From positions 1-32,902 of the forward strand of contig JBJXGI010000079.1 of NCBI GenBank assembly GCA_046153645.1: a stretch of 32,902 bases of DNA, given 5' to 3'. This document shows positions 8,201 through 23,200 of this stretch, piece by piece; within the stretch, counting starts at the first letter, position 1, and the number at the start of each line of letters is the position of its first letter. The stretch comes from Elusimicrobiota bacterium. GTDB taxonomy: Bacteria > Elusimicrobiota > Elusimicrobia > F11. A program made the position numbers.

Positions 8201-11200
8201 ATCTCTGAACCCGAGTTTGTCGAGATTGGATTGAAGATGGCTTAATGTCTGCCGATTCTTCTCAATAAAAACAACTTTTTTGGCCCCATTTGATAAAGCC
8301 TCCATTCCAACTGATCCCGTTCCTGCGTAGAGATCTAAAAAAGTGCAGTTGGGTAAACGGAAGTGAAGAATATCAAACAGAGATTTCTTAATTCGACTTA
8401 GGATGGGTCTTAAATAAAGGCCTTTCGGAAGTGGTAGTAAACTACGACCTCTGGCTGAACCCGATAATATTTTTTGCATGGAAATTAAAAGTGGAGCTGA
8501 TCGGGATTGAACCGACGACCTCCTGCATGCCATGCAGGCGCTCTCCCAGCTGAGCTACAGCCCCTTTCTCACTTGTATCAATAATCTTGAATTGAGTTAA
8601 CTAACCAAGAAGTGAAGAAGGGATCCTACTAAAAAAATTATTTTGATTCAACATAGGGAACAATTCCATTAAATCCAGAAGCACCTGGAAATATTCTTTT
8701 CTGTTCTTCGATTGTTTGAGACAGAATGTCGATGATGGGCGGTGGGTTTGCCCCTAAGGTGGCCCCTCCAAAATTTCGAGCACTTGCAGAGGGTGAAATG
8801 GAGGCCGGAGTTATTTCCATTTCACCTTTTGCTGGTACCGCACCTAAAGCAATAACACTCAGACGCCATTTTTCAGGATCGCCTTTTAAAATTGATCGCG
8901 GAACAGAAACAGAAAGCGTATTTGAATTTGGAGTGATGGTTGATAAAAGTTTTAATCGACGTGGTGAAGCATTTGATAGTGCTTGAAATAAATGGGCTTG
9001 GCCAGGAATCAAATTGAGCGCATATTCCCAAGCGGCATTTTTGTCGATGGAAACAGCTCCTCTGTTTTTAAGAGGTGTTGTGTTTCCCGCTCCAGAAACA
9101 CGATTTACATCAATATAAACATCGAAGAGTGGTTGGAGAATGGTTTTTGCGCTAACAAAAGGTCCTTCCGTCATTATTGAAAAAGTAATCTGATCTTCAT
9201 CCCACGAAATCGAAAATTCTTTAATATCAAAAATCCCTTTATTATTCCCTCCGGTTGGATAAGTGAAGTTCCCTGGTCCAAAATCATCTTGAGATAAATC
9301 ATTCCAAGTTGATTTTTGATTTCCGCTGGTAAAAAAAGGTTTATCACTTGCAGAAGGCATATGAGGCTTTACATAAGTGTTATTTATTTTGGGATTATAT
9401 TGTTCCGAAAACGACCGATTCAAATAAGGCGGTATTGGTAAACCACAAAGTCGATAGACATTGCTGAGGGTGGCTAGAAAAGTTCTTTCACTATTGGGAA
9501 TAAGTACATCCGTTTGACCCAACGCCAGTAAAAAATCTCCAGCTTGAGCTTGATAAAGTTCCTCGAGCGCAGAATCAAGCCTCTGTAAGTTCGCTGTTCC
9601 AGAATTTTTATATTTTTCAATATTAGACCTGGCTTCACTTAAGCTGTACCAAGCGCGCTTTTGTTGCGGAGTTTGGATCCAAAGACTAAAGTCGTTTTCG
9701 AACTTAAAATCTTTGTCATTGATGATCAATTCTTCTGGAGCCGTTTCAGTTAATTCTATACCGGTTTGAAACTGTGCATTATCCAGATTAGCGCGTTTAC
9801 TTATTTGGGTTAAAAACGCCAAATCGGAAGCTGGATCATCACGCAAAGAAGAATCTACCAGCGCAAAGGGTCTTTCTAGGGCCCAAATGGCTGTCTCTTT
9901 GGCCCAATTATCAGTTGAAATAGACGGGTCTAAAAGAGGTTGAGGTTCTGATACAACCAACCCCATTCCCCCAAAAAATAAAATACCCCATTTATTATCA
10001 GGTTTTGAAACAATCCAATTGATTCTGAATCTTTTTAGAGAATCAATAACATCAACAGATAAAGCCAAATAGGGAGGATAAAACCCATTAGGCTGCTGTA
10101 ACCATTCTTTTTGAAATCGTCCGCTGCCTCTGGCTATTTGAGCGGCGATATCATCAGGCCAAATATAATCAAAACCCCACTTTAAAACGCGGTCCCCGGC
10201 CTGACTTAAACGCGATAAAAGCGGTAAATTTGGCTCATTATTGAGAGTTAATGCCACTTCTATTTGCCCAGAACTCTGAAGAACCCTAAACTTCTGAAGG
10301 GTTTCTTTGCGTTTTGGATCTGTGAAATAGCGTGCTGGAAAAATAAGGTTAATTTTTAAAAAAGGTTTGGTTGAGAGAAACTTCTGAATCTGATCTGCAT
10401 CTCCCTCTGGGTGCAAAACTAAAAATATTGACCAGTCATGGGGTGTAGAAACAACACGCGGTTGGTCTTCAGAATGAATTCGAGCACAGACAAGATTTAA
10501 AACAAAAAAAAGTCCGAGAAATATATGTTTTTGAGATTTCATTATTGCGCAGATAAACTATGTAAATAAATCCCAGTTGTGCCGCTTCTGAGTTGCAGCA
10601 ATTCATTTTTTACCTCCGCCCCTTCTTTTCTGGATTTCCAAAAAAGAGATACAGAAATCCCAATGAGAACAAGAGATAAAAGCGAAGATAATATGATGAG
10701 AGTTATTTTCTGAGAGGACATTTTTTTCCGACCCTTTGTGTTTTAAAAAAACCTCTGAAATTTAAAGCTTGAGAGGCTGCAAATTATAACTTATTAACTT
10801 TGCTTTTAAAGGGCTTGAATCGCAATTTCAAATGATTGAAGAGAACTTCTTTCAAGGGATTTGACTCTGAATGGTTTACGGCATAGCTGATGGAAAGAGC
10901 AAGACACATCACACCACGGGACCATTTGTTGCAACCGATCTTCGCAGGCCCCGTTATCCTCGACCATTGCTTTGATTTCTTTTCCGAATTTACCAGCACT
11001 TTTTAAGAACTTGACACCTAAAAAATCGCCTTTTTTGAGAGAAAAAACGTGCAAAATCTTTCCAGAACAATGGACAGGATGTTTTCCAGGGATTCTAAGG
11101 TGAAGTGTAATTTTCTGGCCTTGTTTAATAGGCTTTTCATTCAAGGAATTAAGCTGCAGTGACATTCCTCCTTCAGAAATATTGACCAATTGGGCATAGA

Positions 11201-20200: not shown

Positions 20201-23200
20201 CGGCCCACCTTTATTGATTTTTCAACAGTCGGTGCCTCGGCTTTGCGCCTCTTCGTTTACACGAAGGTTGCCCTTTATCACGTTCTAAAAGTTACAGATA
20301 AAGATCGATTGAATATAGACGAGGAGAATTAAAATTTCAAGGGATATAAAAATCGTGAAAAACGCTTCTATTTTATAAGCGGTTTATTCGAAAAAGTTGA
20401 AAACTATTTATTAACAGCTGTTCCGATAAAGCAGAAAGTTCCATTTTTTTTAATAAGGCCACCATTTCTGCAATCGCTGGAATAAGCGCAGGTTCATTCC
20501 GTTTGCCACGATGAGATTGAGGTGGTAAATAAGGAGAATCGGTTTCAATAACCAAATTTTTAATATCAAAATTTTTTATTATCTCTCTTAATGACTGGGA
20601 ATTGGGATATGTGATAGGGCCATCAATTCCGAGAAAGAAACCCATTTCGGTTAATTGCTTTGCGTGCTCGATTGAGCCTGAAAAGCAATGAATAACTCCT
20701 GGTCTTTTATTGGCTTGGGCAAGTTTCTTTAAATTAATATCAAACGAATTTAAAATAGGAATTAAGTCTTCAAAAGCATTTCTACAATGAATAATAAGCG
20801 GTTTATCAATTTGAAATGAAATTTGAATGGCTTTTTCAAAGGCTTTGATTTGGATATCTTTTGACACGCTGCTTTTCACATAATCAAGACCAACTTCACC
20901 AATGGCAACAAACTGAGGTTCTAAAGAAAGATGGGAGAGTTGATTCCAAACTTCATCGCTGGCTTGGTCAGCATAATAAGGGTGTAGCCCTGCAGACCAC
21001 CACATTTGATTAATATAGTTTCTGGATAATTCTTGAGCTTTTTTCCATTCATCGGGGCCATCAGCAATTTCGACTATATATGAAACACCGGCATCAAACG
21101 CGTTTTTTACTGTTTGATGCCGGTCTAAGTCAAATTTGATATCAGATAAATGAGCGTGTGTATCAAACCAAACAGGCTGGCTCATTACTCAACTTTTAAT
21201 AACTCGACATCAAAATGTAATTCGGAATTAGCTGGAATAATATTTCCGACTCCCCGATCACCATAACCGAGGTTTGCAGGAATAATAAGTTTTCTTTTTC
21301 CGCCCACTTTCATTGTTGAAACGCCTTCATCCCATCCTTTAATCACCTGTCCGACACCAATGACAAATTGAAATGGTTGAGCTCGATCCAATGAACTATC
21401 GAATTTCTTCCCATCGGCTAATGTTCCCGTATAGTGAACGGTAACAACCTGTCCTTTTTGAGGTGAAACACCATCCCCTTCTTTAACATCAACATATTTC
21501 AGACCACTGGCAGTGGACACTGTTTTATCCATTTTTTTCTCCATTGATACAGCTTTTGTGGGTTCAACTTTCTTTTTGGTTTCAGCATAAGAAAAATTTG
21601 AGCCCAAAATTAAAAACAAACTGACTACATAAAAAATATTTTTCATAATTCCTCCTAGGAATAAAGACATTTAATTCTATAAGTTAGGAAAGACAAAGGT
21701 AAGGAAAGTTTAAACAACTTTTTGGAAAGTAATATGAATTTCTTTATTTATGGGAGTTGAGTTATCAATAATATTTTTTTGTTCTTTGCTACATAAAGAG
21801 AAAAAAGCACAAGAATTCCGACATATATTCGACTCTTGTTTTTGAATCCTATTTTCACAATCAATAAACTCTGAAGACATTTGGTTTATTTTATCTGACA
21901 ATTTTGAATCAATTTTGATGAATTCAAAACCATAAAGTGTCTTTTTACCGTTGGGTCTAAAATGTCGAAGTTCAACAATAGCTTCTATTAATGTTCCATC
22001 TGAAAATTGAAGGGCTAAGTGAAGCAAAGTATTTTGAGGAAGATAACCATTTATGTTAACAGACATGCCACCCGCAGAGAGATCTATTAACTTTCCTTTT
22101 AAGGTTGACCCAAAAAAGGGAGGAAGAGGTGTTATATAAACCGGCGTATTTAAAAATGCCGTAGCGGCAAATCGCTTATGTTTTCTTTTTTCAGTCATGC
22201 TCAGAATGTACCGAAGGGTTGTGATATTCCTATGACATGATAACGATAAACAGATGACAACTATTGAGAAAAAAAACTGTCTCCAAAAAGAGATTGATAA
22301 CCCGCCTTAAAATCAGGGTACTGAAAAGAATAGCCGGTTTGAAGTAGTTTTTCATTTGAGCAACGTTTGTTTTTTGATGAACTACGGTGATTAACATCTG
22401 ATTCAAATGGCATGTTTACTTTTTCCCCCAACCACTGAAATATCTCACCTCTGAGAGCCGAGTGATTATCAACCCCATTTAATATTTCCGTTTTATTTAT
22501 TTTTGATAAAAGATAGAAAATGCTTTTCGCGGCGTCGGTTACATGAATGAGGTTTAAATATTGATTTTGGTTTTCTTTTGGTAATTCGCCTTTTCTAGCC
22601 GCTTCAATTCTATTTCTCCCGGGTCCGTATATCCCACCTAAACGATAAACAATTCCAATGGTCGCGTTACTTACAATTGCCTCTTCAGCTCGACACAAAG
22701 CCTGCGTTCGTTGATTAGATTTTAATAATGCACTTTGCTCGTTAACCCATTCCCCTTCATTTTGTTCGTAGACCCCAATACTAGAGGTATATAGAATTTT
22801 CTTAGGTAATTTATTGAGTTGATATAAATAAGAGACAAAATGAGGAATCCCCTGTTCATATACCTGGGAGTATCCATCTGAAATAGAGCCAGATGGAGCC
22901 GCGCAAATAACAAGCAAATCAAAATGAACTTGCTTTAATTCAAAACAATCTTGAGGATGGGAAAGATTGAGAAGTATTGAAGAAATACCGCATTTTTTAA
23001 GCTCTGAGAGTTTAGATTCAGTTGTTGTAGAGCCAAAAACATTCCAATGATGGAATAGAAATTCTTTGGCGACTTGTTTTCCCAGATAACCGCAACCAAC
23101 AATGAGAACGTTCATTACTTCCAGCGGCCACCTTTTCGCATAAAGAGTGGGTCACCTTTAAGAACAGTTTGATTCTTGAAAAATTGTGGATATTTACCCT

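Follow-up and report, generated by a model that had tools for sequence, protein, structure and literature searches.

A c-di-GMP-I riboswitch at the head of a probable five-gene envelope module encoding a giant cargo and a PorV-family barrel in an uncultured Elusimicrobiota bacterium

The window (the whole stretch of 32,902 nt of an Elusimicrobiota contig that was analysed) carries a c-di-GMP-I riboswitch followed by five genes. What does this RNA control, and how might the largest product, a protein of 1666 amino acids, be displayed? The reading we favor, with a probability of about 0.6, is that the riboswitch controls a five-gene envelope module that displays the large cargo, with a PorV-family barrel as its partner.

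Gene layout, aptamer and leader

Including the riboswitch, the locus spans positions 10806–20282, with all five genes on the minus strand. They encode an exported FecR-domain protein (gene 1, 18431–20176, 581 aa), an outer-membrane beta-barrel identified from its structure model (gene 2, 17223–18434, 403 aa), the exported cargo with beta-sandwich repeats (gene 3, 12233–17233, 1666 aa), a PorV/PorQ-family outer-membrane barrel (gene 4, 11307–12236, 309 aa) and a PilZ-domain protein with a four-cysteine C-terminal tail (gene 5, 10806–11303, 165 aa). The ORF coordinates reproduce the lengths given in the first-pass annotation, together with successive overlaps of 4, 11 and 4 nt and a final gap of 3 nt. 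Family searches likewise returned the FecR (PF04773, 66.5 bits), PilZ (PF07238, 44.3 bits) and PorV-like (NF033709, PorV_fam, 176.5 bits; cut-off 90) assignments, and gave no family for gene 2. Two genes have alternative starts: gene 1 would have 583 aa from a GTG at 20182 (18431–20182) and has 581 aa from the GTG at 20176, while the longest ORF of gene 3 (12233–17317, minus strand, 1694 aa) begins with TTG, and the ATG at 17233 yields 1666 aa with a clean signal peptide. Judging from the spacing, the five genes are probably co-transcribed as an operon.

The aptamer (20191–20282, minus strand) matches RF01051 over the full model (positions 1–87) at 50.9 bits, above the gathering score of 35 (E-value 2.7e-7 in the window search, 5.1e-9 in the genome search), which confirms the annotated riboswitch. 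It scores 65 bits with a model made from 37 Elusimicrobiota aptamers, a training set that included the operon's own aptamer. Aligned, these 37 related sequences show pairing in 96.1% of cells, and compensatory changes occur in 14 of 18 pairs. All model positions are matched, including the conserved CGCAAAGCC, the ACCGAA tail and a G at model position 11, which we take to be the equivalent of G20. According to PMC6140456, G20 confers specificity for c-di-GMP and A20 (GEMM-Ib) for cGAMP. By these features the leader RNA is a genuine, working-type c-di-GMP-I riboswitch with predicted ligand binding. That it is the only one in the genome holds at the Rfam cut-off; below it, at 32.8 bits, lies C81:1667–1746, a conserved c-di-GMP-I-like variant with two inserted hairpins.

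Upstream, a sigma-70-like promoter (TTGAAA-17 nt-TATATT, 20312–20340, minus strand; 10 of 12 consensus matches) would place the transcript start near 20305; it is joint best among 28 sites in 10500–20500, a site count that is not above that of shuffles (mean 29.7). The leader strand CUUUAUC (20297–20303, minus strand) pairs with the aptamer 5' tail GAUAAAG (20273–20279) in a hairpin of -7.3 kcal/mol, equalled in 3.9% of 1000 shuffles, and of 5 same-family orthologues tested, 4 have a significant equivalent hairpin made of other letters. Inspection of the sequence past the aptamer places a Shine-Dalgarno (SD) sequence and the start codon of gene 1 at 20174–20186 (minus strand): AGAGG (20186–20182) starts 5 nt past the aptamer and is followed by a 5-nt spacer and GTG (20176–20174). 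Orthologue leaders have the same layout, with the SD 5–10 nt past CCGAA and then a TTG or GTG start.

RF01051 riboswitches such as Vc2 of Vibrio cholerae share with this RNA the two-hairpin aptamer, the GNRA loop, the CGCAAAGCC junction, the G20-equivalent G, the ACCGAA tail and the 5' leader position. Unlike Vc2-type elements, it has an Elusimicrobiota host, a covarying 5' hairpin that takes up the aptamer 5' tail (a trait of the window's family) and an SD within 5 nt of the aptamer, and no terminator was found between the aptamer and the start of gene 1. Folding of the leader revealed no competing structure that would mask or expose the SD (MFE z-score -0.30), duplexes of an upstream strand with the SD were no better than in shuffles, and SD accessibility did not change consistently with the aptamer locked. 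The riboswitch would most likely act on translation initiation of gene 1, and the effect would travel down the operon through polarity and the close coupling of the genes; whether it is an ON or an OFF switch stands at about even odds.

The cargo, its PorV-family partner and the type IX question

The cargo starts with a signal peptide (MNIKKIISFIFFLSVASIARA). It had been described as free of known families apart from its tail, a description refuted by CarboxypepD_reg domains (53.8 bits, cut-off 32.3); SdrD_B, SpaA and NOMO match weakly, and a sequence search found no relative in the PDB. The beta-sandwich repeats may hint at an adhesin, and we infer that the protein is displayed on the cell surface. 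Its C-terminal domain (final 76 aa, 12236–12463, minus strand) has conserved PNPF...K motifs and passes FlgD_ig (29.9 bits, cut-off 27), while remaining below the cut-off of 27 for both CHU_C (21.5) and the T9SS tail model PF18962 (14.8). The PorU-CTD match at 12245–12433 was recovered with 31 bits, solely through the PorU model's own C-terminal domain. The domain resembles both a T9SS type-A tail and a FlgD Ig domain. With a C-terminal-domain HMM trained on this same genome, 13 ORFs end in a domain of the cargo type, and 9 of these adjoin a PorV-family gene.

Gene 4 reaches neither the PorV nor the PorQ equivalog model; its profile recovered only PorV of F. johnsoniae from the PDB (E 5.4e-18), and 14 PorV-family paralogues in the genome score above the cut-off. 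A complex model of the cargo C-terminal domain on the gene 4 barrel gave an ipSAE of 0.94 (best control 0.00), passing a docking mark that was attained in 116 of 157 solved complexes and, among 215 mismatched pairs, in 2, although the pass may reflect likeness to solved translocons, since PorV is in them (7 PDB entries). The docking runs share at least 99% of contacts with partner pLDDT of at least 88, and the contacts fall on positions invariant in both partners (G30–G33 and D204 of the barrel, A87–G89 of the tail). The annotated pairing of cargo and PorV-like protein is hence backed by adjacency in relatives, by the 9 of 13 pairs in the genome and by the complex model. The C-terminal domain would dock on its private PorV-family barrel, which is probably the anchor because no PorU-type sortase was found.

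Assigning this pair to a type IX system, as had been proposed, goes too far. PorU was not found in the genome by model search, nor were PorP (TIGR03519), GldL, GldM and GldN (controls for these four were silent), and the SprA-like gene is a sub-cut-off relative (49.6 bits against 200). In SprB/SprF-type pairs, a cargo with a type-B CTD is encoded alongside a dedicated PorP/SprF-like barrel. A private outer-membrane partner gene adjoining each large surface protein is common to those pairs and to this locus, whereas the partner here is of the PorV/PorQ family, the tail is type-A-like and the PorP family was not found in the genome. With the type IX system of F. johnsoniae, in which the CTD is bound by the PorV shuttle at the SprA translocon (PDB 6h3i), the locus shares a PorV-family barrel, an Ig-like tail, the PNPF...K motifs, the predicted tail-barrel docking and a distant SprA-like gene. 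It differs in having one PorV-family gene beside each cargo (9 pairs; 14 paralogues), in the lack of detectable PorU, PorP and GldL/M/N, and in scores that fall short of the PorV/PorQ equivalogs and PF18962.

The FecR protein and the 403-aa barrel

The structure model of gene 1 (pLDDT 82.6) opens with a hydrophobic helix at the N-terminus; a disordered linker leads to a beta-sandwich of FecR/PupR type, after which come a long helix and a C-terminal domain. Residues ~92–243 match the PupR domain (Z 17.6, rmsd 2.7, 141 aligned), a fold shared with the FecR/PupR cell-surface-signalling domains (PDB 6ovm and 4m0h; Z 17.6 and 16.6), to which gene 1 adds a beta-rich C-terminal domain of 320 aa that matched PDB structures only at Z under 5. 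The gene 2 product has a signal peptide and the C-terminus ...FGFTYEY, and its model (pLDDT 89.4) shows about 16 strands. Its closest structures are the CdiB barrel (Z 20.8), OprP (19.8), porins (about 19), FhaC (18.0) and TamA (17.8); the fold is generic, because CdiB/FhaC barrels and porins tie. The Sec-exported FecR protein and this barrel form the conserved core pair of the module and may assist export or assembly as a unit that spans the envelope.

These folds bear on two other readings. In the first, the module takes up or senses a substrate: the FecR protein would read the 403-aa barrel as a porin or receptor, the cargo would capture polymer for the neighboring GH57 enzyme, and the PorV-family barrel would act as a channel like FadL. 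The PupR domain matched by gene 1 is the periplasmic signalling domain of an anti-sigma regulator, specific porins (OprP, chitoporin, OprB; Z 19–20) tie as matches of gene 2, gene 4 weakly matches FadL/Toluene_X and UPF0164, and a GH57 gene is next after the cassette here and in two relatives (L016 and L019). However, gene 1 lacks a cytoplasmic anti-sigma domain, a hydrophobic helix at residues 10–25 coming first, and there is neither a sigma factor among the neighbors of the cassette (TatD, FKBP, PilZ) nor a TonB-dependent transducer near gene 1. The gene 2 model has no plug or N-terminal signalling domain, the complex model places the cargo tail on the PorV-like barrel, and a promoter-like site precedes the GH57 gene here; we consider uptake or sensing unlikely.

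Alternatively, the products of genes 1 and 2 could export the cargo themselves in a two-partner-like manner without POTRA domains, with the SprA-like protein uninvolved and the PorV-family barrel serving only as an anchor. The CdiB barrel as best structural match, with FhaC and TamA behind it, would fit such a role, as would the overlap of the FecR, barrel and giant genes, their persistence together in relatives, and the single copies of genes 1 and 2 in a genome with many PorV-family genes and CTD proteins. We nonetheless hold this to be quite improbable: ordinary porins tie in Z score, the barrel model has no POTRA domain, no TPS domain was detected at the cargo N-terminus, none of the 8 other CTD/PorV pairs in the genome is accompanied by such a barrel, and barrel homologues also occur alone.

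c-di-GMP input among relatives and across the class

The arrangement FecR–barrel–giant protein–PorV is a conserved Elusimicrobiota cassette. FecR and barrel genes adjoin in 14 of 20 loci centered on barrel homologues, in 55 of 70 assessable FecR loci the barrel gene comes next, and, wherever the available DNA extends far enough, the pair is followed by a gene for a giant protein and one of the PorV family, in that order. In one other family (four genomes), barrel homologues lie among housekeeping genes without a FecR gene. The riboswitch was found, with differing sequences and once at 34.8 bits, in 6 of the 12 searched genomes of the window's family; it was not found in the other six, at least four of which (L016, L018, L019 and L020) hold the cassette and its upstream region. 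Across 74 assessable cassette loci, it is present in about 10 (3 of which were not used to train the model) and missing from about 64. In a quick tree, 10 of 11 riboswitch-bearing cassette copies fall in one clade of 23 rows and one in a distant clade. Since the element was not found in half of the searched family genomes and is missing from most of these loci, c-di-GMP control is optional for the module.

We regard as very remote the reading in which the RNA is a relic in decay, or recognizes a dinucleotide other than c-di-GMP, for instance cGAMP, so that the operon is outside c-di-GMP control. In its favor, many close relatives lack the element, an orthologous cassette riboswitch (L052) has A at the G20-equivalent as described for cGAMP-type GEMM-Ib in PMC6140456, and 50.9 bits is below the 65–77 bits of the best class scores, but the operon's aptamer has the G and every conserved junction motif with all model positions matched, its helices fit the covarying consensus, and the element is kept with differing sequence in half of the searched family genomes.

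The PilZ protein would provide a second, cytoplasmic c-di-GMP input to the module. R7, R11, S43, G45, G46, C120, C131, C135 and C141 are invariant in five sequences, and the ligand-binding motifs R7/R11 and S43/G46 are retained; among 8 assessable relatives, only 3 have a PilZ gene after the PorV gene. The notion of two c-di-GMP inputs is supported by the covarying aptamer and the intact PilZ motifs, with the qualification that each input is dispensable in relatives. Giant adhesins are under c-di-GMP control in the LapA/LapD/LapG system of Pseudomonas, and in Clostridioides difficile c-di-GMP-II riboswitches precede adhesin and pilin genes. The common idea is that production or retention of a very large surface protein depends on a second messenger; here, in contrast, a class-I RNA in the leader is combined with a PilZ protein, and the operon has no LapD/LapG or type I secretion genes.

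The genome has 11 GGDEF and 9 PilZ matches, 6 of these 20 lying at most 6 kb from a PorV-family gene, where 1.15 would be expected (P about 0.002, with the 6-kb threshold picked after the data were seen). In the literature, downstream genes of these kinds were not found reported as riboswitch targets. A link between c-di-GMP and PorV-family genes is general in the class: among the best 30 c-di-GMP-I loci, 14 riboswitches directly head a PorV-family gene and 2 do so with a small CTD-like gene in between (16 of 30 together), 3 head an SprA-like gene, and 1 heads the FecR–barrel–giant protein–PorV cassette.

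A c-di-GMP-I riboswitch at the head of a putative envelope operon

The putative five-gene operon on the minus strand of the window is a conserved envelope cassette preceded by a genuine riboswitch. The cmscan match to RF01051 at 20191-20282 (minus strand) scores 50.9 bits (gathering score, 35) and covers all of model positions 1-87, in agreement with the first-pass annotation; the window's sole further Rfam match is a tRNA. The aptamer helices are well maintained across 37 Elusimicrobiota aptamers, with 96.1% of cells paired (at most 47.8% in slid control alignments) and changes on both sides in 14 of 18 pairs. 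The ligand-contact nucleotides expected of the class (the G20-equivalent, C92 and, within CGCAAAGCC, an A that intercalates; Vc2 numbering) are present: the window aptamer has a G at model position 11, which we take to be the G20-equivalent, as well as CGCAAAGCC and ACCGAA. According to an excerpt of PMC6140456, G20 confers specificity for c-di-GMP and an A at this position specificity for cGAMP; the role of C92 is taken from the same paper. The element is a c-di-GMP-I riboswitch, and its response to this ligand is predicted from sequence.

The operon encodes a FecR protein (gene 1), a 403-aa barrel (gene 2), a 1666-aa giant cargo (gene 3), a PorV-like barrel (gene 4) and a PilZ protein (gene 5); the coordinates confirm the original description of the five ORFs, both in length and in the way they join (three overlaps, of 4, 11 and 4 nt, and a 3-nt gap). 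Sequencing runs listed for this stretch comprise four DNA runs from one biofilter study and no RNA run. Directly upstream of the aptamer is a promoter-like site, TTGAAA-17 nt-TATATT (20340-20312, minus strand; 10/12 matches), which is joint best among 28 such sites in 10500-20500; promoter-like sites are no commoner than chance in this interval, so only its position argues for it. A terminator-like hairpin (CGCUU, 9-nt loop, AAGCG) followed by a U-run, recognized by eye at about 20358-20381 (minus strand), lies across the stop codon of the preceding TatD gene, and the upstream unit therefore probably terminates there. This hairpin was overlooked by the terminator scan because its loop exceeds the 8-nt limit.

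As read from the sequence, the aptamer ends in ACCGAA and is followed by 4 nt, the Shine-Dalgarno (SD) sequence AGAGG, 5 nt and the GTG start of gene 1 at 20176 (minus strand). The leader scan found no terminator-like site between the aptamer and the GTG start; as, moreover, the ribosome site abuts the aptamer, we favor a switch that acts on translation, with ON and OFF polarity about equally likely. The cargo would then be switchable, as first proposed. None of the computations performed (MFE fold, SD helix, SD accessibility) revealed how the SD becomes hidden or freed. By MFE, the leader folds no more stably than shuffled sequences (z -0.30), and in 13 leaders locking the aptamer causes no consistent shift in SD accessibility. 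A 5' hairpin that pairs the first transcript nucleotides with the 5' tail of the aptamer beats 95% of shuffles in five of six family leaders, and its letters differ in every leader in which it is significant; it may be a stand-in for the closing helix or a competitor of ligand binding. In the window, its strands are 20297-20303 and 20273-20279. A helix between upstream CUUUUAGA and the SD was rejected, being not above shuffled upstream sequence in eight of eight orthologues (fractions 0.13-0.85), as was a terminator comprising the aptamer 3' strand, GGCAGC and a U-run within the first codons, which is not conserved in orthologues. If translational control holds, the leader would be a model for a class-I switch whose ribosome site abuts the aptamer. 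At riboswitch loci elsewhere in the class (e.g., L045, L049 and L051), the start codon of a PorV-TPR gene is 2-7 nt past the aptamer end with no SD between them, and here ribosome binding must extend into the aptamer.

Operon products and their relation to type IX secretion

Gene 1 matches the FecR domain PF04773 (66.5 bits; cut-off 24) and is modeled with a pLDDT of 82.6. Residues of about 92-243 resemble the periplasmic signaling domain of PupR (Z 17.6, rmsd 2.7, 141 aligned residues), followed by an anti-sigma factor from Parabacteroides (Z 16.6), while the well modeled C-terminal 320 residues have no PDB structure match above Z 5 and gave nothing usable in the Atlas. The protein thus has the periplasmic domain of FecR-type anti-sigma regulators, but it begins with a hydrophobic helix (residues 10-25) where these regulators have a cytoplasmic anti-sigma domain. 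The operon has no sigma factor or TonB-dependent receptor gene, its neighbors within the window encoding TatD, FKBP and PilZ proteins. Gene 2 has no family match; its model (pLDDT 89.4) is a barrel of about 16 strands that matches CdiB (Z 20.8), OprP (19.8), several porins (about 19) and FhaC (18.0). These matches are effectively tied (Foldseek, VIA-align), so the fold is generic. Assignment to the Slam/BBP2_2 barrels was discarded, the Atlas likeness being weak (TM 0.66-0.70; in one cluster, 19% carry the family).

When started at ATG 17233, gene 3 encodes a signal peptide, CarboxypepD_reg domains and a C-terminal Ig-like domain, with weak matches to further prealbumin-like sandwiches and no PDB relative by sequence. 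The C-terminal domain (CTD) comprises the last 76 residues and is therefore at the extreme C-terminus, as in type-A tails. It passes the FlgD_ig model (29.9 vs. 27) and fails both CHU_C (21.5) and the T9SS sorting model PF18962 (14.8, under the Pfam gathering score of 27); motifs common to ten orthologous tails are NFPNPF..., ...VASG.YI... and ...KFFKMAV[IL]K. The cargo might be an adhesin, as it was first labeled. Gene 4 belongs to the PorV/PorQ family (NF033709, 176.5 bits; cut-off 90), and it misses the equivalogs for both PorV (NF033710, 80.2 vs. 250) and PorQ (NF033711, 91.7 vs. 220). With a profile built from nine gene 4 orthologues, the sole PDB match was F. johnsoniae PorV (E 5.4e-18).

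Modeling supports binding of the cargo tail by the gene 4 barrel. We modeled residues 25-309 of the barrel, using a 9-row alignment, together with the C-terminal 110 residues of the cargo, using a 10-row alignment. The predicted complex scored 0.94 (best control, 0.00) and passed a docking mark that 116 of 157 solved complexes attain, as opposed to 2 of 215 mismatched pairs. The docking runs share at least 99% of their contacts, the partner has a pLDDT of at least 88, and the closest contacts (barrel G30-G33 and D204, tail A87-G89) involve residues that are invariant in both alignments. PorV is present in solved translocon structures, so this result may reflect likeness to those.

PilZ receptors of c-di-GMP are defined by the motifs RxxxR and (D/N)xSxxG. 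Gene 5 (10806-11303, minus strand; PF07238, 44.3 bits vs. 22.5) contains both, as RRTYQR and NISEGG, with R7, R11, S43, G45 and G46 invariant across five sequences, making it a candidate receptor. Its C-terminal tail has four invariant cysteines (C-x10/11-C-x3-C-x5-C) that possibly form a metal site; no named family was found for this tail. The same tail occurs on the product of a paralogous PilZ gene in the window (21710-22198, minus strand), and a third gene on another contig (C48:18654-19127, minus strand) resembles both. Across the genome there are 11 GGDEF and 9 PilZ matches, of which 6 of 20 are within 6 kb of a PorV-family gene (1.15 expected, P about 0.002) and 3 are within 3 kb (0.68 expected, P 0.03), both thresholds having been picked after the data were seen.

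Individual GGDEF and PilZ genes on other contigs were also recorded. Two GGDEF genes are directly upstream of another pair encoding a CTD protein and a PorV-family barrel (C71:51365-55701, plus strand), a GGDEF gene on C11 adjoins a weak PorV-like gene, and a PilZ gene on C68 is 1.4 kb from a PorV-family gene.

The first-pass annotation had placed the cargo/barrel pair in a type IX-like system. The genome (99.7% complete) does share parts with type IX secretion: there are 23 matches to the PorV family model NF033709, 14 of them over the cut-off, and a CTD model trained on tails of this same genome detects 13 ORFs that terminate in the domain; nine of them adjoin a PorV-family gene (seven over the cut-off, two under). 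The searches did not recover the canonical machine, and the sorting model for the gene 3 tail failed as well. All eight matches to the PorU sortase (NF033707) are confined to its tail (positions 947-1087), the best with 31 bits against a cut-off of 420. The genome has no match to TIGR03513, TIGR03517 and TIGR03523 (GldL/PorL, GldM/PorM and GldN/PorN) or TIGR03519 (PorP), models that were equally silent in the control genomes. Three fragments of SprA/Sov (TIGR04189) fall in one 1811-aa frame on contig C100 (best 49.6 bits vs. 200), which is at most a distant SprA relative. 'Type IX' is a putative label here.

Three other ORFs of this genome also carry these parts. A 458-aa ORF (C43:10496-11872, plus strand) encodes a PorV-family barrel followed by a CTD copy (residues 327-404) and has the appearance of a naturally fused partner pair. 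An ORF of 8730 aa ends in a CTD (C79:12501-38693, plus strand), and one of 4107 aa with internal CTD copies is followed by a PorV-family gene (C84:1525-13848, plus strand).

Conservation of the cassette and its riboswitch

Homologues of the gene 2 barrel are present in 34 of the 41 genomes searched, the window's own included. Among 20 fetched loci, the FecR gene is directly 5' of the barrel gene in 14, the giant gene and then a PorV-family gene follow wherever the DNA extends, and a PilZ gene is 3' of the PorV gene in three of the eight loci that could be assessed. A scan of one genome per species yielded 405 relatives of the FecR protein. Of the best 80, 79 are titled as Elusimicrobia, Elusimicrobiota or a member of the phylum and one as 'bacterium'; the start of a barrel homologue is no more than 400 nt past the FecR stop in 55 of the 70 assessable loci among these. 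In one other family (four genomes), the best barrel homologue lies amid housekeeping genes without a FecR gene. As far as we found, this FecR-barrel-cargo-PorV cassette has not been described.

The riboswitch is more sporadic. RF01051 reaches the Rfam cut-off in 3 of the first 20 barrel loci. Among the 12 genomes of the window's family, the riboswitch is 5' of the FecR gene in the window's own genome (G000) and in G002, G005, G006 and G009, and scores 34.8 bits at this position in G007; the RF01051 search did not find it in G001, G003, G004 (71% complete), G008, G010 and G011. A model built from the 37 aptamers (R1) was run on the best 80 FecR loci, six of which have less than 600 nt of upstream sequence, and matched 5' of the FecR gene in ten, seven of them from the training set and one weak (28.9 bits). 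In a quick FecR tree, 10 of 11 riboswitch-bearing copies group in one 23-row clade (support 96) and one is in a distant clade, and the well-supported branches require at least four gains or losses. This distribution suggests that the link between riboswitch and cassette is old in the 23-row clade, that losses were frequent, and that one or more additional origins or transfers occurred.

Two further observations concern individual loci. In L052 (at the same place as L086) and L056, an A replaces the G at the G20-equivalent position (...TAGCAAAC...), a hallmark of the cGAMP-sensing GEMM-Ib riboswitches, and one of the two heads an orthologous FecR cassette. L081 and L083, the two ends of one contig of 184,798 bases, have the same FecR-barrel-cargo stretch in opposite orientation with identical proteins; the probable cause is either misassembly or an inverted duplication of the contig termini.

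Targets of c-di-GMP-I riboswitches in the class Elusimicrobia

The class is represented by 151 genomes, 86 of which contain RF01051 matches (up to nine each), and we classified the downstream genes for the best 30 of about 235 matches. In 14 of these 30, the product of the first gene is a PorV/PorQ-family barrel that usually has a TPR tail; in another two it is a small FlgD_ig/CTD-like protein, and the next gene belongs to the PorV family. Three loci have a small similar protein and then a beta-propeller or unknown gene, and at three the first product is SprA-like, with about 61 bits against a cut-off of 200. The remainder consist of one FecR cassette, one CarboxypepD_reg giant, one FlgO/CsgG-like protein and five proteins of no family. 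The start codon is 2-7 nt past the aptamer in many of the best 30. The earlier proposal, in which c-di-GMP acts on a cargo/PorV pair, holds up in large part and applies across the class, with 14 plus 2 of the best 30 riboswitch loci leading to PorV-family genes.

At three loci of the same class (L059, L063 and L064), a strong RF01051 match (about 65 bits) is about 180 nt 5' of the SprA/Sov-like gene, so this pore-like gene is also a riboswitch target in some lineages.

The riboswitch class and surface proteins as its usual targets were already known. What is new is the target, an envelope cassette of an uncultured phylum in which a giant tail-bearing protein is coupled to its own PorV-family barrel; that a genome can be rich in such tails and PorV-like barrels, yet the type IX motor and sortase are not found; and that c-di-GMP riboswitches of the class mainly precede PorV-family and SprA-like genes. 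A more far-reaching reading, with a probability of roughly one in three, is that Elusimicrobiota might possess a motor-less relative of type IX secretion, with a small SprA-like pore, a private PorV-family barrel for each cargo, type-A-like tails and no sortase. Class-wide, c-di-GMP-I riboswitches would have its genes (PorV-TPR barrels, SprA-like pore, small CTD proteins and the FecR cassette) as their principal regulon, allowing the whole surface proteome to be reprogrammed via RNA, and the window operon would be one module, doubly wired through PilZ. If the three new points hold, c-di-GMP signaling would be joined to a type IX-like pathway, a link for which our full-text literature searches (outside subscription journals) returned no precedent, and the role of PorV-type barrels without the remaining machine could be addressed in a small system.

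The riboswitch of the window, initially described as the only one of its genome, is so at the Rfam threshold; a c-di-GMP-I-like element bearing an insertion lies just under it (32.8 bits to RF01051) on contig C81 at about 1610-1746 (plus strand; L002:1444-1580). Elements of this type are shared by four family genomes (loci L002, L070, L071 and L072), always 5' of a PorV-family gene with TPR, which in the window's genome scores 108.9 bits to NF033709. In them, an insertion of about 55-60 nt that forms two extra hairpins separates hairpin 1 from the GCAAAGCC junction, and 19 of 40 predicted pairs have compensatory changes among the four sequences. The C81 element is a conserved variant, not a wreck.
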